Notes: generated by a model not told the origin, from the sequence alone. Shown: positions 1-11,641, counted from the stretch's first letter. The stretch is DNA of 64,000 bases from Candidatus Poribacteria bacterium (GCA_036339735.1 JAYZAL010000066.1:42652-106651), one strand, 5' to 3'. Program-made: numbers and translations.

Positions 1-2
1 TT

Positions 3-605
3 CAAAAATCATTAGCTGATTTAAGCTCTGGGCAAATTAGTCAACCGGTGGAGTCCGTCGATGGCTTCTACGTTTTTAGAGTTGAAAAAAAGAATGATCA
101 AAAAATTGTTTTTCAATACTTTCTGACCCCCTTCCAGATCAGCCAAACTGCAAAAGAGAAGGCACTTCAAAAGTCAGAACAGCTTGTTGAAAAACTCGAT
201 CAAGGTAGTGACTTTGACCAAGTGCTGCAAACACACCGCCAAACAACTTCGGGGTATGACTCAGAACTCGAAAAAAATAGGTTTGGTGGAGACTTGGGAT
301 TTCAACCATTAGCCAATCTATCGACCGAAATTCGTAAAGTAGTCGAATCATTGGGGGTTGGTGTTTATAGTGGCCCAGTTGAAACTAGTTCTGGGTTTCA
401 TATTTTTATTGTTATTGACAAACAGAAAAGCCAGTTAAATGAAAAAGAAAAAGAGCAGGTAAATCTTTACTTGAGAGATCAAAAGTTTCAAAAAGAATGG
501 AAGAACTATACGAATCTTCTAATTGAATATTCATTTGTCAAATACTTTGACCCAAAATTGATCATTGAACCGACTGAAAACGAGGGTGCCACGGCTATCG
601 AATGA
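3..605 (+). CDS. SurA/PrsA-like parvulin (PpiC-type) peptidyl-prolyl isomerase, 5'-truncated by the window
   Basis: The frame is open from position 3 (QKSLADLSSGQISQPVESVDGFYVF). It has two rotamase C-terminal motifs (GQISQPVES.DGFYVF and GGDLGF...GVYSGPVETSSGFHIF) and a SurA-like C-terminal helix. Its stop overlaps the lptD start (ATGA). Confidence 0.85.
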   Translation, partial: QKSLADLSSGQISQPVESVDGFYVFRVEKKNDQKIVFQYFLTPFQISQTAKEKALQKSEQLVEKLDQGSDFDQVLQTHRQTTSGYDSELEKNRFGGDLGFQPLANLSTEIRKVVESLGVGVYSGPVETSSGFHIFIVIDKQKSQLNEKEKEQVNLYLRDQKFQKEWKNYTNLLIEYSFVKYFDPKLIIEPTENEGATAIE

Positions 606-3600
606 CCCGCCCCAGTAATTCGGCGAGTCAGCAACAACTCTCTGCCATCCACGCTTTGTCTGTAAGCTTGCTCTCCGGTCTGTTCCTGTTGCTTCCATTC
701 GGTCTTGACCACGTTTTGGCGCAAGATACATCAACTGGGCCCGTACTTACCTCCCAAATAAATACCGAATCAAAAGATAATAACACTAGTGAGACACCAC
801 CGGTGCTCTCTCCTCAGCTTAATTCTCGGTCGGATCTTCTAAGACCAGAAGAAACAGAACCAGAAGAGGGTAAAATTATTGGTAAGGGAGATGAACTATT
901 TCTAGTAGGAAATTTAGTTCACATTCATGGTAATGCACTAGTTAAGTCAGGAGATATGACTCTTTATGCTGACCACGTTTGGGCTGACTTCGATCAAAAT
1001 CTACTACGAGCCTCTGGTAATGTTAGATTAATTTCTGGTCAAGAACGTACTTACTCGAATGAACTTCTTTTCAATTTAGACAATAGAAAAGGTATTATCC
1101 GTCAAGGTTCGACTTATAGTGAACCCTGGTATTATCGGGGAAATGAAATTTTCAAGACTGAGGACGACGAATCCTATATTCGCAAAGGATCATTGACTAC
1201 CTGTTCCTTGAAACACCCACATTATTATTTCAGTAGTTCAGAGATTATAGTTAAGGTTGACAAAGAGTTGATTGCCAAAAATGTAGTCCTCAAAATTGGT
1301 GGAATTCCGCTTTTTTATATTCCAGCTTATCGTCGCGATTTACGTACCGACAAATTAGCCAAGGTAATTGTAAGGTTAGGAACAGATAGCTATCAGGGAC
1401 CATTTTTAAGCATTGAGTTGCCACTATCCCGCAAAAGGAGGCTGGATGCACGTCTAATGTTCGACCATACCTCCAGAAGGGGACGTGGGGGAGGAGCCGA
1501 TAGTACTTATCAAATTAACGATACACGTTATGATGAAATTTTTATCCCCATCTTTCATGATGCCACTCCTAGCGAGAAGAAAAAATTAGAAGACCTCGCA
1601 ACTGAGATTAGGGAAAAACTTGATGGAGATCATGATTCATACAAATTGAAGGAACTCTTCCTAGAATATCGGTTGGAGCCAGAGGATCTTGCTCGAGCCA
1701 AGGACAAAGTAGAAAAAATTTATAATAAACTAACAACTGATCTAATCACGACCGAAGCTGATCAGCCATCCGATCCATTACCGTTAGGATCAGAAGCCGC
1801 TTTTGCACAAATCGCACAGGAGAACTCAGATCACCAAGAAACTCGCTATGAGGGTGGAGATATGGGCTATATTATACGTGGTGAAGTCGACGAAGAAGGA
1901 AAACGACGACTAAGTCCTATGTTGGAGGATGCTGTTTTTTCATTGTCAGCTGGACAAATTAGTCCAATCCTAAAAACCAATTTTGCTTATCATATTTTTA
2001 GGGTCGATCATGTATTAGAAGTTTACGGAAAGAAAGAGATTAAGCTCCGCCGTATCGATATCAAAATTAGTCCGACGAGCGAAACGAAAGATCAAATACG
2101 CGAACTCGCTGATAAGATCCAAGAACAAGCAGTAGATGGTAAGGACTTAGCTGATTTGGCATTAAAAAACAAAGGTGCTATCTGGCGAAATGTCAATAAT
2201 GGAGACTGGTTACCCCTAAACGAAATGGACGACAGATGGCAGTATTCGGTTAGACGGTTGGAAGAAGTGGGGGATGTAACTACAACGGTTATGACTGACA
2301 GAGGCGTACACATTTTTCAACTTGTTCAAAAAATGCCGACACCTACCTTCGCTGAATTAGCCAGCGAATTTGAGTCTCAGTACGGAGATTGGTTGCGTGA
2401 AGAGTATGAACGCCGCAAACCGGAAGAAAAAAAACAATCTCAGAGTTTTCTGATGGGTACAACTGCAGAGCGAGCCCCCCTCAAAAGAAAGCCTTCTAAT
2501 ATAGATGAGAAGAAGGAATTACCAAATCAAGCACCTTCGGAGACATCGACAATTGATGAAGATGGAGTTGTAGAGCAAAAGGAACAATTAGAAGTTTTCC
2601 GTCAACATGACTTTCAGGGTAGTTGGCAAAATGAAAAGGCTGTTGCACGACAAGCTCGTCAGTTAAATCGGGGCGAAACGAGTAACATTATCGATAGTAA
2701 AATAGGTTTCCACCTCATAGATATCAAAAAAAAGCGAACTTATCGGGGTGATTTTTACTTGTATGGCCAAGATCAATATTCCTATTCGCGAAAAGATGCT
2801 ATGAAAATTGGGCGAGAATACGTTGCGCGGTGGGGGCATTATCATAGTATCTACACACCTTGGGATAAACCAGAAGAGGGAAGAAAACCCCTTAACTTCA
2901 TGGGAAGAGCTGAATGGCAAGCACGCCATTACGATGAAAATTATGGTACATCTGAATCGGCTATTCATTCTTTTGGTATGTTGACATGGGGAAATGCTTT
3001 TTCTGCTTGGGATACAGATGATCGCGATGCTGACGGCAATCTGAAATTTTCTACCAAAACTATTGGTGAGTTTTTAGGTCGTTTACAATTCAGTCATTCG
3101 TATGAATTAATCGAAAGTGATGTTGCATCTACCCTACAAAAACTACCTGAGTTATCTCTTCACTTTTCCCGAATGAGAATGAGTAACTTGCCTGTTTTTG
3201 AAACTATCAATGACACACTGGTCAAAATTTCGGAAAAAACAAAAACTAATATACCTATATTGTCTCTCATATCTCTTCCTACTCTAGAAGATGCTTCATT
3301 TGATTTAGATATGAATTTAGGTAATTTTTTTAGAAAACGTTATGAAAAAGAGCAAGATGTTTATTTGAAAACAGGAGTGATGGGATTCGACATTCAAAAA
3401 CAATCGACACTCAAGTTATCTTCTACACGGGAAGTTCGCCTAGATCTTGGCTTCGATTCTGATGCTGTATGGCATGATCGAGATCGGGATGGCCATAAAA
3501 ACATTCTGAGGGGTATCTATAGCCTCAACGCCGATGCTCGCAACATATTATTTCGTATCTATGACATTAGCTGGATTCCTGGAGCACGACGCCTAAGACA

Positions 3601-4405
3601 CCAGATCAATTCTGGCGTGTATTTTAATTATCAGCCTGCCGTAGATCGGGATGAAAACAGCCGCTTATATCCCTTTGGACCAAGTACTTATTTTTACGAG
3701 CGCAAAGATATTAGCTACACATTAGAAACAAGCATTGAAATCAAAACGCGTAAGCATCGATCAGCTCTAAGATTGATCGATTTTCGCACCCAATTGCGTG
3801 GGGATTTTACAGAATATGCAGCTGAAAACAATAGGACTTATGATTATATAGAGAGCGATATCACTCTCACACCACTACCCAATCGCACGATGAGTATTAT
3901 CATGCGTACTACTCATGATCCTAACCCATCAGAGGTAGATGGGAAAAGATTTAAACAAGTAGGTTTTCGCTCTAATTTTAGTTATCGTCGCGAAAAATGG
4001 AATCTAACTTTCGGTAACTCGTTCAGTAAACGAACAAGTTATGCCTCTCGTCGTATTAACACAAGTTTTCAATATCGTCCCAATTCAATGTTCGAAGTCG
4101 ACTTTAATGCTGACTATGACTGGGTGGAAAAACAGTTTTATTCTCAAAGTTTAACCATTCGAAGGAACCTACATGATTGGGACTTGCGACTTTCCTGGCA
4201 TCGGATTGGCATCAAAAGGCCACCTGATTTTAACAGTGTACGACAAGATTTCACCTTTCAAATTAACCTGATTGCTGACTCAGCTGCTTCGGTTGGTCTC
4301 GGTTACGATGCAGTAACTGAGACTTGGGGCTTCCGTAGCCTGCCAGTTGGTGTACCTTATAACGCTTTTGGTGTTGGTAATGCTATGAGTCGCTCATATT
4401 TCTAA
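602..4405 (+). CDS. lptD: LPS-assembly protein LptD with an internal multi-parvulin insertion
   Basis: Signal peptide; OstA-like jellyroll (GNALVKSGDMTLYAD, RASGNV); TTC...PHYYF and GIPLFYIP motifs; barrel strands (DHTSRRG, QKLPEL, RRLRHQI, RNLHDW). About 400 aa of PpiC-like sequence lies at ~1520-2740. Confidence 0.85.
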   Translation: MTRPSNSASQQQLSAIHALSVSLLSGLFLLLPFGLDHVLAQDTSTGPVLTSQINTESKDNNTSETPPVLSPQLNSRSDLLRPEETEPEEGKIIGKGDELFLVGNLVHIHGNALVKSGDMTLYADHVWADFDQNLLRASGNVRLISGQERTYSNELLFNLDNRKGIIRQGSTYSEPWYYRGNEIFKTEDDESYIRKGSLTTCSLKHPHYYFSSSEIIVKVDKELIAKNVVLKIGGIPLFYIPAYRRDLRTDKLAKVIVRLGTDSYQGPFLSIELPLSRKRRLDARLMFDHTSRRGRGGGADSTYQINDTRYDEIFIPIFHDATPSEKKKLEDLATEIREKLDGDHDSYKLKELFLEYRLEPEDLARAKDKVEKIYNKLTTDLITTEADQPSDPLPLGSEAAFAQIAQENSDHQETRYEGGDMGYIIRGEVDEEGKRRLSPMLEDAVFSLSAGQISPILKTNFAYHIFRVDHVLEVYGKKEIKLRRIDIKISPTSETKDQIRELADKIQEQAVDGKDLADLALKNKGAIWRNVNNGDWLPLNEMDDRWQYSVRRLEEVGDVTTTVMTDRGVHIFQLVQKMPTPTFAELASEFESQYGDWLREEYERRKPEEKKQSQSFLMGTTAERAPLKRKPSNIDEKKELPNQAPSETSTIDEDGVVEQKEQLEVFRQHDFQGSWQNEKAVARQARQLNRGETSNIIDSKIGFHLIDIKKKRTYRGDFYLYGQDQYSYSRKDAMKIGREYVARWGHYHSIYTPWDKPEEGRKPLNFMGRAEWQARHYDENYGTSESAIHSFGMLTWGNAFSAWDTDDRDADGNLKFSTKTIGEFLGRLQFSHSYELIESDVASTLQKLPELSLHFSRMRMSNLPVFETINDTLVKISEKTKTNIPILSLISLPTLEDASFDLDMNLGNFFRKRYEKEQDVYLKTGVMGFDIQKQSTLKLSSTREVRLDLGFDSDAVWHDRDRDGHKNILRGIYSLNADARNILFRIYDISWIPGARRLRHQINSGVYFNYQPAVDRDENSRLYPFGPSTYFYERKDISYTLETSIEIKTRKHRSALRLIDFRTQLRGDFTEYAAENNRTYDYIESDITLTPLPNRTMSIIMRTTHDPNPSEVDGKRFKQVGFRSNFSYRREKWNLTFGNSFSKRTSYASRRINTSFQYRPNSMFEVDFNADYDWVEKQFYSQSLTIRRNLHDWDLRLSWHRIGIKRPPDFNSVRQDFTFQINLIADSAASVGLGYDAVTETWGFRSLPVGVPYNAFGVGNAMSRSYF

Positions 4406-4630: not shown

Positions 4631-7600
4631 TTGGGTAAAAGGGGCTTGAGTTGCAAGGATAGCCAAGCGAGTATCAGTGTGCAGGCACCAATCACGGGAA
4701 TTAGTCTAGGTGTCATTTGGTGGTATGTTCTTTGTTCATGTATCAGCGTTTATGCTGCCGATTTTGCCATTCCACCGCAAGTTCTTGACGATACGACAGA
4801 AATAGACGCAGTTTTTAGTCCCAATGGTGATAACATCCAAGATAAGGTCGTCATTGTCTTTGAAATGGATGGTACAACCGGTGAGTACGAGATAATCATC
4901 GATGTCCATGGGCCAGGCGGTGTTGGTAAACCTGACGGTCAGTTCAATGTAGATGATGACTGGTCAGTTTTAGGTAAGTTTGGCCCTGGTGTAACAATCA
5001 ATGATGCCCCTAAGCGTTTTCGTATTGAATGGGATGGAAGAGATAGTGTTGCTGGAACAGCTAAAACTGTAACTGATGGAAACTATCAACTGCGCCTGCA
5101 AGTTGACTTTTTTCAGAATGAAATATTGGATCCAATACAGGATTCACACTCCCAAATCTTTCCTATAATTGTTGATACAGAATCACCACAAACGTCGGCT
5201 AAGTTGGAAAGAACAGGCTTCTCACCCAATGGTGATGGTAACCGTGACCAACTACCTATTAACTATGTTTTAGGAGAACAATTATCCGGCCTGGAACTAT
5301 TAGTTCCAAGCCATTCATCAATTCAATTATCGGACCTAGCAGCAGGCAATCAAATTTTCAACTGGAATGGACAAGACGGGCTTGGAGCTGTTCTGCCAGA
5401 CGAGTCTTACAATCTTCAATTAAGAAGTTTGGATTTAGCCGGTAACGAAAGTATCGTTTCTCTAGGGCAGATTTGGCTTGATACAAAAAAACCAACTATC
5501 AGCCAAATAATTCCATCTCCTGATGCCAAAGTGAATACTACAGTCAATGAGTTGATAGCTACCTTTGAAAGTGGAACAGGTAGTCAGATTGACTTTGATA
5601 ACTCGATTATAAGTTTGACTCATCTTGATGAAACTATTCAAAATGGGACTGTTAGTTATGAGAATATGACCTTGAGGCTAACATTAGAGAATTCTCTTAA
5701 TTTGGCTTCAGAGAATGGGCTTTACACAGTGAATGTGCAAGCTGTTGACCTCGCGGGAAATAGGGAAGTCTCAACTTTCAATTTGGTTTTTGATACGATT
5801 CAACCATCAGTACTACAAATTCGTCTCGATGAAGACAACTTGCGTGACCGAGTTCATGTTAATAGTAGTATCGGTTATATTGAGGCAGACCTAAGTGATA
5901 ATCTTTCTGGATTAGATTTGGCAAATTCACTTCTGCAATTGTCAAAATCAGGTACAGTTGTAGATGGAGTTCAGTTACAGATCGATACCGATACAATTCG
6001 TTTTCAACTTAGCCGAGCACTTAAATCAGACGGGAGTGATGATGGAGCTTACGAAATCCTGCTTACGGTATTTGACACAGCGGGTAACAGTCAGGTACAA
6101 ACACATCCGCTAGTTTACGATACTACAGCCCCTACTTTGATAGGAACAAACCCTCCAGATCTTTCACAAGAAAAAGTCCGTATAGATCAAGCTGTAGCAA
6201 CAATTGAGCTCACCTTTTCTGACCAAAACGATAATGTTGTTACTTCTGGGCTAAGCTTTGATGAGACGACAGTTTTTGTCACTAAAAGTGATGGAACGTT
6301 AGTCTCTACAATTAAGCAGGTCACTTCTCCTTCTAATTTAGAGCTACGCTTTTCTAGTTCTCTGACTGCTGGTGATTATACACTTTCATTCGTAGCAAGC
6401 GATAAAGCAGGCAATCAAGGAAAAGAAACTAACTATCCTTTCTATATCGACCTGAGGGTACCAGAAATACAATTCACGCCAAATAACGTACCATTGGCTA
6501 CATTAGAAGCAGTCTCAGCTCAATTGATAAACTATACTGGGATTGGTTTAGATCTGGTTAGGTCTAGCCTACTAGTTCAAGACGTTAGTGGTAATACGAT
6601 TCCATCCCAAAAGACCGAGATAGTTGATCAATCTCTAGTTTGGCATATCAAAAACCAGTTACCAAAAAATGGAAGTCAAGATGGAAATTACATAGCCACG
6701 GCCAACTTTGCTGATTTTGAAGGTAGAACCTATACAGCGAGTTCGACCTTGACTGTTGATACGCTACCACCTACTATTGACAAGACCATCCCTGTTGATG
6801 GTTCGAAAGTCTCTGTCCTAAAAGAAGTTGACGTATTCCTAAACGACAATTTAAGTGGAATTGACTTTAGTCAAACCGAAGTCTTGTTAAGTTCAGACGG
6901 TGGTACAATTTCTACCACAAAAAGTGATAATGGAGACAATCACATAAGACTCACCTTTACTGACCGCCACGCGGACGGGTCGGCGGATGGTTTGTATACG
7001 GTTGGTATCACGGCAGTTGATTTAGCCGGAAATATTAGTGGGACTCAAAACGTGTCCTTCTACCTAGTCACACAAAAGCCGGAAATTATTTCGGTTACAC
7101 CGTCTGCTAACTCTCGAATCAATCATTTATCTACAATTTCTGCATCATTGTTGGATCTTAGTGGAAAGGGTATTGATTTTGATAAAACAACCATTACTTT
7201 GTCCAATTCTAGCGGTGAAGTTCTGGGTGGAACCTCATTAACACATACTGACTCACAGATCACATTAACAGGAATAGAATTACCTACAGATGGATCGGCA
7301 GATGGTATATATACTATGTTAATCACATTAGTAGATAAACTTGGTTCCACAGCAGAAAAGCTGCAAAAAATTCACTATGATACGCAACCACCTGTCATGA
7401 GGACAAGCAATCAATCCTTCGAGAGACTATCAACAGACCAGGTGTCAGTTAGCTTCGAGGTAGTTGATTCCGGCAGTGGAATTGATATTACTAACTCTAG
7501 CCTACAGCTATCCAATACCGATGGAACAGTAGTCCCAGGCCAGTTTAGTTATGATGGTACAGCAAACCTCAGCTATAAGTCAGCTAAACTCAACGCTAGT

Positions 7601-10600
7601 GGCATTTATATGCTCCAAGTTGTACTTACAGATCAGGCAGGCAACAGCAGCATACCATATACTTTTTACTACGCATACGGGGTAGAGCTAGCAGAAGTTG
7701 TTGAGGTCACACCCCGTTTGACTAATAATTTGGAAGCGGTCGTTGTCACATTCAAGAGCCAGCAAAGTCTCGATTTTGAGCAGACGATTCTTGAACTGAT
7801 AGCTCCGAATCAGCAAGTTGTTTCTGGTGTTATGACCAACGATGGTCAACAACTGATAACCTTCACTCCAAGCATACCATTAGCTGTTGACGGAAGCCAA
7901 GACGGCGCTTACGCATTAACAATCCAGCCATCAGTTATGGCCATAGGCCGCTCAGATAAAAAGTGGTCTGGTGAAATTACTTTTGACACACAACCACCCG
8001 AAGTAAAGTCAATATCTTATATTACTCAACCTGAACAGTTAGCGGTTGATTTGCAAGGCACGGTTGTGGGTTTACCCACACAATTTCAGTTGGTGTTAGC
8101 TGATACTATTAGTGGAATTAATGGGCAACAAACAACAGCTCAGTTGATTTCGCCTACAGGACAAGTTAGTACCACAAAATCCTTGAAAGCCGATATAGAA
8201 ACCAATGAATACTCTATTAATCTAAGCCTAAACAGTCAGCCTAAACCTGATCCTTCCGTAAATGGCGACTATGTTCTTGAAATTATAGCCGTTGACCTAG
8301 CTGGTAACTCAACGACCTACAGTCGTAGTTTTACAGTCATGTGGGCTGCAGCTACGGTTTCATCGACTCAACCAGCATCGTTTAGTAAACTGAATGAGTT
8401 GCAACGAGTCGACGTGATGCTTGAAAATATGGCCGAAACTGAAATTGAAAAAATGGCCACTGTTCGATTAGTAAGTCCAGACAACTCCGAGGTCGCAGGG
8501 CGACAAGAAGTTGTAGGTACTATGGTAAGTTGGATATTGGATCAACCACCACCACAAGATGGAACTGCCGATGGAGTCTATACAATTCAATCCACGGTTC
8601 TTAAGAATGATCAGGTTCTGCTATCCGAAAACACCACATTCCTATATGATACCAAAAGCCCTCAAGTTGATAGCGTAGTACTGCAGACAAACGAATTGAC
8701 TGAACTGATACCTAGTCAAGTTATAATGGTTACAGAACCATTCTCTGCCATAAAAATTAAGATAGTTGATCAGCTAGCAGGGACTGATTTGACGACCTCA
8801 ACAGTTAGCCTGAGAACTAGTGAAGGTTTAGGGATCGAACAAGGCCTAAATAATGGTACTGGCGAAGTTCTTGAGGTCAAGAATAATGGTATTGATACAA
8901 TTACGGTTGAATTTGCAGAATTGAAATTAACTGGTATCTACACATTAGTGATTACACCAAAAGACTTGGCTGGTAATACTGGCCATCCATCGCTTTATCA
9001 AATTAACCTCAATCTCTCAAAGCCAAAACTCACTTCAATCAAAATTAGCGACCGACTGGGACTTGTCACAGCAGAATTAGCTAATGCGACCGCAGAGTAT
9101 TCTACCATCGAAGTTGTGGGTCCTAATGGGCAAGTTATTGGTAAAACCACAGAGGACAATCTTAAGAAACAAATTACTTGGACTCCGACAAATCTTGCTC
9201 AGGACGGTACTGATGATGGGGTTTATACGATTACGGTTACACCAGTTAACAAGCAAGGTATATCCGGCCAAGTATTAGTAAAGCGGTTCACTTATGACAC
9301 CCAAGAGCCTGAGATTAATAATATTACTGCTGTCGATCTAACACAACCGGTCTCTTATCTATCGAACCCAACGTCACAAATTACAGCAACGGTCTCTGAT
9401 CTGGGACCAGCAGGGCTCGACACTGAACAACAAAAGATAACACTAATTGACAGTAGTGGGCAAACTGTCAGCGCATTTTTAACTCATGATGGTAGAGAAA
9501 ATCTATACTTCACTTTCAATCCATCGTTCGCCAAAGATGGGACTAACGATGGAGAATATCAACTAGCTATTAACTTAATTGATAAGGCTGGTAACAAAAA
9601 AGACTTCACACATTCGGTATTTTATGATAGTTCTCCACCAACGCTGACCGATATTATTCCAGGCGATGGGGCTCTTCTTAAGGGAGAAATTAATCAGGTT
9701 ACAGTTAATTTGGCTGACAAAAACGGAAGTGGTATCGATTTCAGTCTAACGACCATTTCGGTAACAGATACTGAGGGCAATTCGGTGAGTGGTCAAATGA
9801 GCCACGATGGAAAGTCTAAAATAATCTTTAAAATTGATGATCTAGCACCAAGTGGATCCTATTTGGTTCGAGTTGAAGTCGCCGATCGAGCTGGTAATCA
9901 AGCCATATTCGAAAGCGGATTCACAAATTTGTCTAATTTACTTGTAGCTTCCTCCACTACACCTGTAACACGTCCAATTGAAAAGGCATTCAACCGAAAA
10001 AAACTAGATTCAGTTACAGTTCAACTGCCAAAAGATGTTGGGATCCACTTGTCTACGTTACATTTGGTCGACAGTAGTGGTCAAATGGTCATGGGGTACC
10101 AAGACCGTAATGGTTCTTCAGATTTACAATATCAGCTCCAAAAGCCATTGAAGGACGATGGATCAGATGATGGGACATATACTATTGTTTTTACTCCTAT
10201 TAGCGCTAATGGGCAAAGAGGGCAACCACAACTTATGAGTTTCGTCCACGATACAGTAGAGCCAGAAATCGATGATGGCCAAATTCGGCTGAATGTAGCT
10301 CAAGCAGGAGTTAATAACTCACTAGTATCAATTCAGCTACCAGTGTATGACCCATCTCCATCTTCGGGTATAGACTGGTTAGAACGTCCATTGCCAATCG
10401 TAGTAACGTTAGAATCTTTCGCAAAGGAAAATATTGCAGGTCGGATTTTAGTTGAATCTGATAAAGAGGAGGTGACTTTTGTCCTAAACAAACCTCTGGC
10501 GAGTGACGGCAGCCAAGATGGGAAATATAAGCTGAAAGTCGATGTTACAGACCAAGCAGGTAATGACTTGAATTGGATTTATGATTTTGATTACGATACT

Positions 10601-11641
10601 CGTCCCCCAGAGATCCAAACCTCAGATTTACAGATTAATGGGCAGCCACTAATTGTTGATGCTAACCATATCGACTACCCATCAGTTGCAGGTCGTGGTG
10701 GTTCAGTTATCATAACAGCCAAGATAAAGGATAGTGACGGTTTAGGGGTAGACTTATCAACTTCCAGCATAAATGTTATCTCACCAAGTGGTGAGGCCAT
10801 AACCGGAGGCCTCACACAGAATGGAATTGATTTTCTGGTTTTTAGCTCATCGCAATTATTGCCCAATCAAGGATACTATAGGGTGGTGATTACAAGCGTC
10901 GGGTTAGATCCTCAGAACTTGGGTTTCCAGCCGACAAAGACAATTAGTACTGAATTCCTCTATGAGACATTACCACCGGTTGCAAGCCTCACTGATAGTG
11001 GTAAAGATAAGATTGAAGAAGGAGATGCCTTAACACTAAAAGGTGTAGCTTCAGATCCTGATAGTCAAGAAATACCAGCTTCTGGTGTTAGTCGTGTTGA
11101 GATTGTTGGTACAGGACCCGACGGAAAAGATATAGAACCGGCTGTAGCGGTGGACATGAGTAAAGGTGGTAGTAACCAATGGAGTAGCTGGAAAATTGAT
11201 TACTTACCACCTAAATCTGGTAGATATGTATTGAGTGTTCGAGTTTATGATAAAGCGGGTAATGCCGAAACTTATGAAAAGAAAGATGTTACTTTCACAG
11301 TTTCACTTGGATTCAAAGGTGAGACATTTTGTTGGCCTAATCCCGTATCGTTGTCTGCGTCATCTAGTGGTTCGGTGGCACATATATCTTTCGATCCTAA
11401 TATAGCCAGTAATGATACAGCTAATCTGACCCTTAGTGTTTACGATTTATCTGGTGACTTAGTCTATCGATATAAAGAACCTGATATAAAACCAGGTAGA
11501 CAAGATACTACACTCAAATGGAATTTAAGTAATTCTTCTGGAAGTAAGGTCGCACGTGGTATTTACCTTTTTCGACTGGAAATAGTAAATGGCGTGGATG
11601 AATCATCCAATACGGTTGGTAAAATCCTAGTAGTGGAATAA
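4631..11641 (+). CDS. Giant secreted Ig-repeat surface protein with FlgD-like Ig domains and a T9SS-type C-terminal sorting domain
   Basis: Signal peptide (SVYA/ADF); two FSPNGD(G) FlgD-Ig units; roughly 20 repeats with SG.D...S, DG[ST]xDGxY and DxAGN...DT.PP motifs; C-terminal WPNP..YDLSG..V..WNL.N..G.KVARGIYLFRL. The TTG start is uncertain. Confidence 0.8.
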   Translation: MGKRGLSCKDSQASISVQAPITGISLGVIWWYVLCSCISVYAADFAIPPQVLDDTTEIDAVFSPNGDNIQDKVVIVFEMDGTTGEYEIIIDVHGPGGVGKPDGQFNVDDDWSVLGKFGPGVTINDAPKRFRIEWDGRDSVAGTAKTVTDGNYQLRLQVDFFQNEILDPIQDSHSQIFPIIVDTESPQTSAKLERTGFSPNGDGNRDQLPINYVLGEQLSGLELLVPSHSSIQLSDLAAGNQIFNWNGQDGLGAVLPDESYNLQLRSLDLAGNESIVSLGQIWLDTKKPTISQIIPSPDAKVNTTVNELIATFESGTGSQIDFDNSIISLTHLDETIQNGTVSYENMTLRLTLENSLNLASENGLYTVNVQAVDLAGNREVSTFNLVFDTIQPSVLQIRLDEDNLRDRVHVNSSIGYIEADLSDNLSGLDLANSLLQLSKSGTVVDGVQLQIDTDTIRFQLSRALKSDGSDDGAYEILLTVFDTAGNSQVQTHPLVYDTTAPTLIGTNPPDLSQEKVRIDQAVATIELTFSDQNDNVVTSGLSFDETTVFVTKSDGTLVSTIKQVTSPSNLELRFSSSLTAGDYTLSFVASDKAGNQGKETNYPFYIDLRVPEIQFTPNNVPLATLEAVSAQLINYTGIGLDLVRSSLLVQDVSGNTIPSQKTEIVDQSLVWHIKNQLPKNGSQDGNYIATANFADFEGRTYTASSTLTVDTLPPTIDKTIPVDGSKVSVLKEVDVFLNDNLSGIDFSQTEVLLSSDGGTISTTKSDNGDNHIRLTFTDRHADGSADGLYTVGITAVDLAGNISGTQNVSFYLVTQKPEIISVTPSANSRINHLSTISASLLDLSGKGIDFDKTTITLSNSSGEVLGGTSLTHTDSQITLTGIELPTDGSADGIYTMLITLVDKLGSTAEKLQKIHYDTQPPVMRTSNQSFERLSTDQVSVSFEVVDSGSGIDITNSSLQLSNTDGTVVPGQFSYDGTANLSYKSAKLNASGIYMLQVVLTDQAGNSSIPYTFYYAYGVELAEVVEVTPRLTNNLEAVVVTFKSQQSLDFEQTILELIAPNQQVVSGVMTNDGQQLITFTPSIPLAVDGSQDGAYALTIQPSVMAIGRSDKKWSGEITFDTQPPEVKSISYITQPEQLAVDLQGTVVGLPTQFQLVLADTISGINGQQTTAQLISPTGQVSTTKSLKADIETNEYSINLSLNSQPKPDPSVNGDYVLEIIAVDLAGNSTTYSRSFTVMWAAATVSSTQPASFSKLNELQRVDVMLENMAETEIEKMATVRLVSPDNSEVAGRQEVVGTMVSWILDQPPPQDGTADGVYTIQSTVLKNDQVLLSENTTFLYDTKSPQVDSVVLQTNELTELIPSQVIMVTEPFSAIKIKIVDQLAGTDLTTSTVSLRTSEGLGIEQGLNNGTGEVLEVKNNGIDTITVEFAELKLTGIYTLVITPKDLAGNTGHPSLYQINLNLSKPKLTSIKISDRLGLVTAELANATAEYSTIEVVGPNGQVIGKTTEDNLKKQITWTPTNLAQDGTDDGVYTITVTPVNKQGISGQVLVKRFTYDTQEPEINNITAVDLTQPVSYLSNPTSQITATVSDLGPAGLDTEQQKITLIDSSGQTVSAFLTHDGRENLYFTFNPSFAKDGTNDGEYQLAINLIDKAGNKKDFTHSVFYDSSPPTLTDIIPGDGALLKGEINQVTVNLADKNGSGIDFSLTTISVTDTEGNSVSGQMSHDGKSKIIFKIDDLAPSGSYLVRVEVADRAGNQAIFESGFTNLSNLLVASSTTPVTRPIEKAFNRKKLDSVTVQLPKDVGIHLSTLHLVDSSGQMVMGYQDRNGSSDLQYQLQKPLKDDGSDDGTYTIVFTPISANGQRGQPQLMSFVHDTVEPEIDDGQIRLNVAQAGVNNSLVSIQLPVYDPSPSSGIDWLERPLPIVVTLESFAKENIAGRILVESDKEEVTFVLNKPLASDGSQDGKYKLKVDVTDQAGNDLNWIYDFDYDTRPPEIQTSDLQINGQPLIVDANHIDYPSVAGRGGSVIITAKIKDSDGLGVDLSTSSINVISPSGEAITGGLTQNGIDFLVFSSSQLLPNQGYYRVVITSVGLDPQNLGFQPTKTISTEFLYETLPPVASLTDSGKDKIEEGDALTLKGVASDPDSQEIPASGVSRVEIVGTGPDGKDIEPAVAVDMSKGGSNQWSSWKIDYLPPKSGRYVLSVRVYDKAGNAETYEKKDVTFTVSLGFKGETFCWPNPVSLSASSSGSVAHISFDPNIASNDTANLTLSVYDLSGDLVYRYKEPDIKPGRQDTTLKWNLSNSSGSKVARGIYLFRLEIVNGVDESSNTVGKILVVE

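Follow-up and report, generated by a model that had tools for sequence, protein, structure and literature searches.

The stretch of DNA analysed here (hereafter, the window) comprises 64,000 nucleotides of a Candidatus Poribacteria genome (contig C66:42652-106651 of GCA_036339735.1; the assembly amounts to 4.32 Mb in 107 contigs and is 92% complete). Near its start lies an open reading frame (ORF) without internal stops, which encodes the LptD subunit of the outer-membrane lipopolysaccharide (LPS) translocon of a free-living marine Candidatus Poribacteria. This protein carries a module of parvulin-type peptidyl-prolyl isomerase (PPIase) domains within its β-barrel. An earlier sequence-only reading had placed such an insert at about window 1520-2740, between two barrel strands that it quoted. 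Both flanks were found where claimed, RGGGADSTYQIN at residues ~296-307 and YRGDFYLYG at ~714-722, and the insert itself takes up ~405 amino acids (residues ~308-712, window ~1523-2737). The ORF and its parts are as follows.

602..4405, + strand: whole LptD-parvulin ORF, 1267 amino acids plus stop
602..724, + strand: predicted Sec signal peptide (residues 1-41), with the hydrophobic core ALSVSLLSGLFLLLPFGL followed by VLA/QD; read by eye from the sequence
725..871, + strand: low-complexity linker rich in S, T, P and E (residues 42-90); read by eye and outside the AlphaFold construct
872..1336, + strand: N-terminal LptA/OstA-like β-jellyroll (residues 91-245), placed by VIA superposition on LptA 2r1a_C and by hhalign; includes the cysteine of the TTC motif, C201
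1352..1522, + strand: predicted barrel strands β1-β4 (residues ~251-307), from DSSP of the AlphaFold model and collinearity with canonical LptD in hhalign and hidden Markov model (HMM) alignments
1523..1627, + strand: putative parvulin unit A, N-terminal part (residues 308-342), the strand YDEIFIPI, continuous with β4, and helix α1; predicted local distance difference test (pLDDT) about 90
1634..2023, + strand: parvulin unit B, complete (residues 345-474); Rotamase E 2.7e-15, with SD, GGDMG and the second His kept
2027..2341, + strand: parvulin unit C, complete but degenerate (residues 476-580); Rotamase E 3.1e-6 and insert model
2348..2413, + strand: putative resumption of unit A, helix FAELASEFES... 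(residues 583-604); pLDDT about 90
2417..2593, + strand: charged linker inside unit A, predicted to be disordered (residues 606-664); pLDDT <50 over insert-model positions 316-366, poorly conserved
2594..2737, + strand: putative unit A, C-terminal part (residues 665-712), whose last strand GFHLIDI continues into β5; Rotamase_2 E 5.2e-4
2738..4402, + strand: barrel from β5 to the C-terminus (residues 713-1267), ending in ...SRSYF; from Foldseek, VIA and the barrel profile

The first line of evidence concerns the insert itself. The Pfam Rotamase family (PF00639) matches the whole protein at E 9.2e-26 and 91.1 bits (cut-off 21.7) in three stretches, in agreement with the three PpiC-like units noticed earlier, and each piece of the insert also matches when scanned alone: residues 301-493 at E 2.7e-15, residues 494-593 at 3.1e-6, and residues 594-713 at 9.7e-4. 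The last of these pieces additionally matches Rotamase_2 (E 5.2e-4) over profile positions 6-108 of 121. The closest sequences in the PDB are the PPIase domains of PrsA (2jzv_A, E 7.1e-6).

An AlphaFold model of the insert alone (residues 295-735, built from 43 sequences; model number equals protein number minus 294) reached a pLDDT of 79.3 and a predicted template modelling score (pTM) of 0.63, with folded parts at about 90. In this model a strand at positions 9-22, which runs from β4 into YDEIFIPI, and a helix at 29-46 open unit A. Units B (52-180) and C (183-284, from strand E183-194 to strand E274-284) follow, both as complete parvulins. Unit A then resumes with a helix at 289-310, passes through a disordered stretch at 316-366, and ends with a strand at 372-378, a helix at 385-393 and a strand at 408-422, in which GFHLIDI passes into β5. 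DSSP of the full-length model likewise gives a continuous strand, E612-632, at the join of unit A and β5.

The PPIase domain of human Pin1 superposes on the insert model (VIA) over 99 residues, with a root-mean-square deviation (rmsd) of 2.6 Å, Z 11.1 and a range of 10..416, which reaches from the opening strand and helix across the helix that follows unit C to the final strands. As the three segments of unit A hold ~104 structured residues, this alignment is compatible with a parvulin A that is discontinuous. The pair formed by units B and C superposes on the tandem parvulins of 8hm3_B (Z 14.6, 204 residues aligned, rmsd 4.6, model 51..286). Parvulin P1 of SurA (2pv1_A) aligns 98 of its 103 residues with Z 13.7 and rmsd 1.9, i.e., as a single unit, so that the insert does model as parvulin; 3gpk_B aligns with Z 12.9, while whole SurA (1m5y_B) fits poorly (rmsd 16.5 over 161 residues). 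It should be noted that VIA ranges give the first and last aligned residue only, the SurA P1 range of 51..284, for example, spanning both B and C; for this reason, the support for nesting is good but not conclusive. With this qualification, the models support the nested layout that had been read by eye, in which a split parvulin A would surround the complete parvulins B and C and a disordered linker.

The second line of evidence concerns the host of the insert. Direct Pfam and NCBIfam runs gave no LptD family, and the identity of the protein was therefore drawn from its fold and from profile-profile comparison. An AlphaFold2 model of residues 91-1267, built from 41 aligned sequences, has a mean pLDDT of 70.2 and a pTM of 0.46. 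When this model was compared with the PDB by Foldseek, the 22 best-ranked rows listed were all LptD chains, the best being 4q35_A at E 1.7e-18; PPIase and SurA chains came after them, and the first other barrel, a TonB-dependent receptor, appeared at 1.2e-4. VIA aligns 574 residues with Escherichia coli LptD (Z 20.2, model 1..1132 against chain 51..757), with an rmsd of 13.3 Å that is poor for the whole chain, and 408 residues with the barrel-only LptD 9rpt_A (Z 14.2, rmsd 7.2, model 619..1136 against chain 278..764). The jellyroll is matched closely by LptA 2r1a_C (Z 13.3, rmsd 2.0, 112 residues aligned, model 1..112) and by LptH 4uu4 (Z 13.3). The Pfam LptD_N profile scores only E 0.55 and 12.4 bits on the protein; hhalign to LptD_2 relatives covers the jellyroll.

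A profile of the C-terminal barrel built from 20 poribacterial genes (A2) and searched against 1.84 billion representative proteins matched 62 proteins at E ≤ 1e-3. Ten distant matches were scanned with Pfam. Eight carry LptD_2 (seven of them also LptD, and four also LptD_N), none of the eight with a parvulin domain; the remaining two (P0137 and P0148) carry Rotamase domains only. Aligned by hhalign with 18 canonical LptD_2 proteins (A3), the 41 poribacterial sequences gave a probability of 100 and an E value of 2.6e-57 over 642 columns, and A3 in turn matches the solved LptD of Klebsiella pneumoniae (5iv9_A) at E 1.3e-42. Together with the Foldseek and VIA results, this bears out the assignment to LptD made from the sequence alone. 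In the ESM Atlas, past the protein's own two clusters, neighbours of the LptD family lie at 0.81-0.82, under the 0.9 line, which makes them a lead only.

The canonical relatives found in this way have ~700-850 residues, compared with 1267 for the LptD of this genome, and the nearest canonical LptD cluster belongs to candidate division TA06. Two of the canonical LptD_2 relatives, P0150 and P0152 (1014-1024 amino acids), have ~260 extra residues between LptD_N and LptD_2, with no parvulin among them, and represent a further size variant of LptD. P0148, an 856-residue protein named Candidatus Poribacteria and encoded on a 159-kb contig, carries two Rotamase stretches and matches the barrel profile only over the profile's first ~140 positions (residues 627-753); this protein could be a truncated or diverged member of the family.

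The gene content of the genome and the phylum was examined in the same terms. A Pfam profile search found no PF04453 (LptD) or PF19838 (LptD_2) match elsewhere in this genome, which leaves the LptD-parvulin protein as its only LptD candidate. Across 176 Poribacteria genomes PF19838 has matches in 116 at E ≤ 0.01 and in 92 over the cut-off, one per genome except for two in one contaminated genome. The matches listed, a few of which were checked by coordinates, all fall in long ORFs of the size of the parvulin-LptD or in ORFs cut by a contig end. On these matches, this protein would be the only LptD of the phylum. LpxC (1.5e-84), LptF/G (4e-81 and 4e-70) and an LptA-like ORF (2.9e-9) are also present in the genome. 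An ORF of 187 amino acids at L034:1282-1845 (G000:C36), with a lipobox-like FIGC and a sub-threshold match to Pfam LptE (E 0.0046), is a weak candidate but the likely LptE partner of the translocon.

With regard to the position of the insert in the barrel, DSSP places four strands between the jellyroll and the insert (model 166-172, 176-186, 193-199 and 209-226), and hhalign is collinear with canonical LptD_2 up to ...ADSTYQIND (residue ~307), where the canonical proteins have only a short turn. In the alignment of A3 with K. pneumoniae LptD the canonical segments follow in the order RRSGFLIP, SLPYYW, DATITPHY, RGG, VMWENEFRY, QLGS and GLTEFDY, and poribacterial β1-β4 are collinear with the GFLIP / LPYYW / DATITPHY / VMWENEFRY region. 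Counting along the K. pneumoniae protein puts two prolines at the positions of P231 and P246 of E. coli LptD, which the literature assigns to β1 and β2, respectively, with the β24-β25 turn being periplasmic (PMC6164715; bioRxiv 10.1101/2025.04.10.648201). The VIA ranges roughly agree on the position of the insert (model 206 corresponds to about chain residue 271, and model 619/625 to about 278/285). The chain enters β1 from the periplasmic jellyroll and would therefore be back in the periplasm four strands later; because turns from even to odd strands are periplasmic and the insert follows β4, the β4-β5 turn that holds it should be periplasmic as well. The profile alignment and strand parity thus agree with the earlier placement by eye, and the module would hang beside the jellyroll and the β1-β4 lobe of the lateral gate. 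At the columns of P231 and P246 the poribacterial residues are V and E, with a proline (ELPLS) two residues past the P246 column, and the 18 canonical LptD_2 relatives also have no consensus proline at the P246 column; the prolines of β1 and β2, which in E. coli loosen the lateral gate, may be a proteobacterial rather than a family-defining feature.

The third line of evidence is the conservation of this arrangement, which bears directly on whether it is an artefact, i.e., a chimeric assembly, a gene fusion by frameshift, or an insert that in fact lies in an extracellular loop. At the level of the order, the search covered 41 genomes of four families (40 relatives and this genome). The protein is present in all 41, with 50-92% identity and in frames of ~1190-1360 amino acids, and many of these genomes are single contigs with the gene in one open frame. 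Phylum-wide, 174 of 176 Poribacteria genomes have a match at E ≤ 1e-20, and the two without one are fragmented assemblies (90% and 81% complete). In all five genomes tested from other orders or classes, the N-terminal, parvulin and C-terminal matches lie in one frame of 1120-1319 amino acids. The same architecture, which had been proposed from one genome, is therefore that of the phylum. Family members differ in how many parvulin stretches Pfam detects, from 1 to 4. Column conservation is 0.79 in the jellyroll, 0.78 in β1-β4, 0.62-0.73 in the parvulin units, 0.72 in the barrel and 0.31 in the linker. By this measure, constraint acts on the parvulin domains but not on the linker; the latter is variable, disordered and 50-100 residues long.

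Metagenomic reads and contigs bear on the junctions themselves. At least 83% of the sampled words from window 1300-3000 occur in 14 DNA runs, which belong to at least 8 marine or seawater metagenome studies. A DNA contig of 4227 bases from run X11, a run not flagged as a possible source of the assembly, covers window 300-3027 and thereby both junctions, with 9 differences and no gap. Contigs of X12 cover window 1382-1630 and 2234-2812, and contigs from RNA libraries cover, among other parts, 1696-2088, 2139-2419 and 2662-2894, the last across the second junction; RNA-library contigs are no proof of transcription, and the parts left uncovered prove nothing. No indels or joints were found in the metagenome contigs that bridge both junctions. 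The insert is not a misassembly.

One relative (G038:C4:1024017-1027626) has the gene broken near residue ~540 into two frames, of 627 and 709 amino acids, that overlap; a frameshift, a pseudogene or an assembly error may be the reason. This case speaks for an artefact, and for a misplaced insert one may add that strands β1-β3 are modelled at pLDDT <50, so that the number of strands ahead of the insert is uncertain from the model alone. Against both stand the bridging contigs and the distribution of the protein, which in many single-contig genomes of the order and phylum occupies one open frame of ~1230-1450 amino acids, and hhalign and the HMM alignment put exactly the β1-β4 region ahead of the insert. 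An explanation by artefact or misplacement is, in our opinion, close to refuted.

Several results nevertheless weigh against a parvulin-bearing LptD with a role in its own assembly. The protein reaches no Pfam or NCBIfam threshold for LptD and has no LptD-family Pfam match at E ≤ 1; for its N-terminal 320 and C-terminal 561 residues Pfam gives no family at all up to E 10, and NCBIfam runs on pieces of the protein gave only a weak match to the CT351 outer-membrane barrel (E 0.0073, residues 135-308). The barrel profile A2 has no match among PDB sequences at E ≤ 10. The full-length model is moderate by pLDDT and pTM, and its superpositions on full-length LptD have rmsd values of 13-15 Å. Besides the low pLDDT of β1-β3, the 4 + 24 strand elements counted by DSSP, with the last 20 residues (including ...SRSYF) unmodelled, do not reproduce the 26 barrel strands of LptD; some of the 24 elements after the insert are probably split strands or loop hairpins. 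As for activity, unit B has a conserved Phe at the position of the first catalytic His (first-His positions were read from the strand by eye and not taken from a tool alignment), and among the 41 aligned orthologues the second His is replaced by Tyr in unit C and by Arg in unit A, in at least 80% of sequences in each case, although this genome has His at both positions. Pfam finds no SurA_N, SurA_N_2 or SurA_N_3 in the insert, whereas the SurA encoded upstream has SurA_N; the core formed by the N- and C-terminal domains of SurA is the carrier of its chaperone activity. Finally, there is no obvious need for a tethered chaperone, because the genes just upstream already supply a full SurA and two more parvulin proteins.

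These points bear unequally on the parts of the interpretation. The architecture together with the identity as LptD is, in our opinion, highly probable. The function of the module is a different matter. Of the suggestion that this is an LPS translocon with a tethered SurA-like chaperone, the LptD with its parvulins stands, but the label of chaperone is conjectural, given the missing SurA core and the loss of catalytic His in units A and C. Unit B keeps SD, GGDMG and the second His in at least 90% of the 41 orthologues, and unit C is without GGDLG. We tentatively suggest, at somewhat less than even chances, that the module works in cis, mainly as a device with weak or no enzymatic activity that binds and holds the barrel or docks it during assembly. 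In the models, the β4-β5 hairpin runs on as a ribbon of two strands, which are the first and the last of the discontinuous parvulin A, and parvulins B and C sit between helix α1 and the next helix of A. The module could keep the long unfolded barrel soluble in cis and dock it at the β-barrel assembly machinery (BAM) and SurA, which would build in some of the assistance that free SurA gives to E. coli LptD, a protein described as 'principally dependent on SurA' (PMC3747590). The stronger version, in which part of the SurA-type pathway is hard-wired into its most SurA-dependent client and the translocon's own periplasmic holdase or docking module of parvulins, rigidly fused to the lateral-gate lobe, is required in cis for barrel assembly at BAM, possibly also holding the jellyroll in place of disulfides, is possible but rather doubtful. 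Taken as a whole, with architecture, LptD identity and function together, our explanation has a slightly better than even chance of being right.

The cysteines of the protein are in line with a purely structural role for the module, which fits the data about as well as the chaperone role. C201 in the TTC motif, the equivalent of E. coli C173, is the only Cys of the protein and is nearly universal (its column is kept in 38 of the 41 orthologues), and no Cys column is conserved in the barrel across these orthologues; therefore, interdomain disulfides of the E. coli type are absent. In E. coli LptD, C31-C724 and C173-C725 disulfides tie the jellyroll to the β24-β25 turn, in which C724 and C725 lie, and LptM binds the periplasm-facing side of β1-β4, a lobe that moves between contracted and extended states (bioRxiv 10.1101/2025.04.10.648201). 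The module might replace both the disulfides and LptM as a rigid periplasmic buttress that places the jellyroll relative to the lateral-gate lobe of β1-β4 and β26, or that contacts LptA or LptE, with no folding-helper activity. The modelled fusion of unit A to β4 and β5 by a continuous, rigid ribbon and the catalytic degeneration of units A and C would suit such a brace. Yet three domains and a long disordered linker exceed what a brace needs, the motifs kept in unit B would be superfluous to it, and a precise brace would not be expected to differ among relatives in its count of parvulin stretches (1 to 4); moreover, the full-length model, at a pTM of 0.46, places the insert relative to the jellyroll without confidence. 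We consider bracing alone unlikely, though it deserves to be taken seriously next to the holding or docking device preferred here.

Comparison with known systems helps to delimit what is new. Like LptD proteins (Pfam LptD_2 PF19838 and LptD PF04453; 4q35, 5iv9, 9ia0), the poribacterial protein has an N-terminal LptA-like jellyroll with a TTC...PHY motif, a hinge and a large C-terminal barrel; its best fold and profile matches in the PDB are LptD, and it is the sole such gene in a genome with LpxC and LptF/G. Unlike them, it has a ~405-residue tri-parvulin module in the predicted β4-β5 turn, has no partner cysteines and no Pro at the P231 and P246 columns, and remains below the Pfam thresholds. 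With SurA (1m5y) the insert shares tandem parvulin domains of the same fold, a predicted periplasmic location, genetic linkage to lptD, and the insertion of domains within another structural unit, since the parvulins of SurA sit between its N and C segments. In contrast to SurA, the insert has no SurA_N or C-terminal core, and the real SurA is a separate upstream gene. PrsA, the Bacteroides fragilis PPIase (8hm3, 8hm4) and PpiD also hold parvulin domains at a membrane surface, and units B and C superpose on 8hm3_B; those proteins, however, are anchored by lipid or helix and have a dedicated NC chaperone domain, whereas here the barrel of an LPS translocon would serve as the anchor, and the domain that houses the nested ones would itself be a parvulin.

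A literature search over titles and the beginnings of abstracts, with supplements and subscription journals outside its scope, turned up no report of an LptD into which a PPIase domain is inserted. The parts, LptD and parvulin, are known; their arrangement is undescribed and phylum-wide. Public names of these proteins are hypothetical protein, peptidylprolyl isomerase and parvulin-like peptidyl-prolyl isomerase, and none names them LptD. Family-based annotation would miss LptD here, because the Pfam LptD and LptD_2 models find nothing in the genome, and a missed LptD could mislead ideas about the poribacterial cell envelope. Most LPS-producing bacteria cannot do without LptD, which is also a target for antibiotics and the classic example of a SurA-dependent client that is hard to fold. 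A natural tri-parvulin LptD thus offers a way to ask what parvulin domains add to barrel assembly, as well as how the geometry of jellyroll and barrel is fixed without disulfides or LptM. If the module is indeed needed in cis for assembly, this would be the first outer-membrane barrel known with folded chaperone-type domains in a periplasmic turn.

The genes on either side are of interest for a further explanation of the module. In the window, they are the following.

3..605, + strand: surA, 3' part; the full gene has SurA_N_3 (E 1.9e-13), SurA_N and two Rotamase stretches
4631..11641, + strand: ORF of 2336 amino acids, directly downstream of LptD

The upstream gene has 464 codons for amino acids; its start lies outside the window, at L021:5863 of the fetched upstream DNA, and its stop codon, at window 605, overlaps the LptD start codon by 4 bases. 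The separate SurA-like gene noticed at this overlap is, judged by its domains, a true and complete SurA. A SurA-sized parvulin ORF lies directly upstream on the same strand in 25 of the 40 relatives of the order. There is no sign that the insert arose recently as a duplicate of the adjacent surA, as it has only 22-30% identity to the upstream SurA ORFs of relatives (parvulin part); nor does it match the SurA of its own genome at E ≤ 1e-3. The gene order leading into the LptD-parvulin ORF is mfd, a 444-residue protein with LysM and Rotamase_2, a 337-residue protein with Rotamase_2, and the 464-residue SurA, the upstream parvulin genes spanning L021:3451-7257 and the last of them ending at window 605. 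With mfd in front, four consecutive genes, LptD included, thus encode parvulin domains.

This cluster, the retention of most parvulin motifs in unit B, the PrsA foldases as source of the closest PDB sequence matches of the insert (2jzv_A), and the surface-type protein encoded directly downstream would all accord with a foldase acting in trans. LptD would then serve as an anchor for parvulins that assist other outer-membrane or secreted proteins, e.g., the neighbouring giant Ig-repeat protein. There is, however, no evidence of any client, and the rigid fusion to β4 and β5 restricts the reach of the module. The LptD translocon of E. coli is essential and low-copy, and such a translocon would be a poor supply route for a general foldase. 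A role in trans therefore appears improbable, clearly more so than either bracing or the in-cis holding or docking device that we favour.

Two features of the neighbouring proteins may be recorded here. The 444-residue LysM and Rotamase_2 protein ends in an acidic tail of SEES repeats. In the 2336-residue protein, numerous Ig-like domains of bacterial type (Big_13, Big_3_2, Big_5) are accompanied by a CopC-like stretch, and the C-terminal region, of the FlgD_ig/CHU_C type, is similar to a sorting domain for type IX secretion; the protein has the appearance of a giant protein of the surface or adhesin type.

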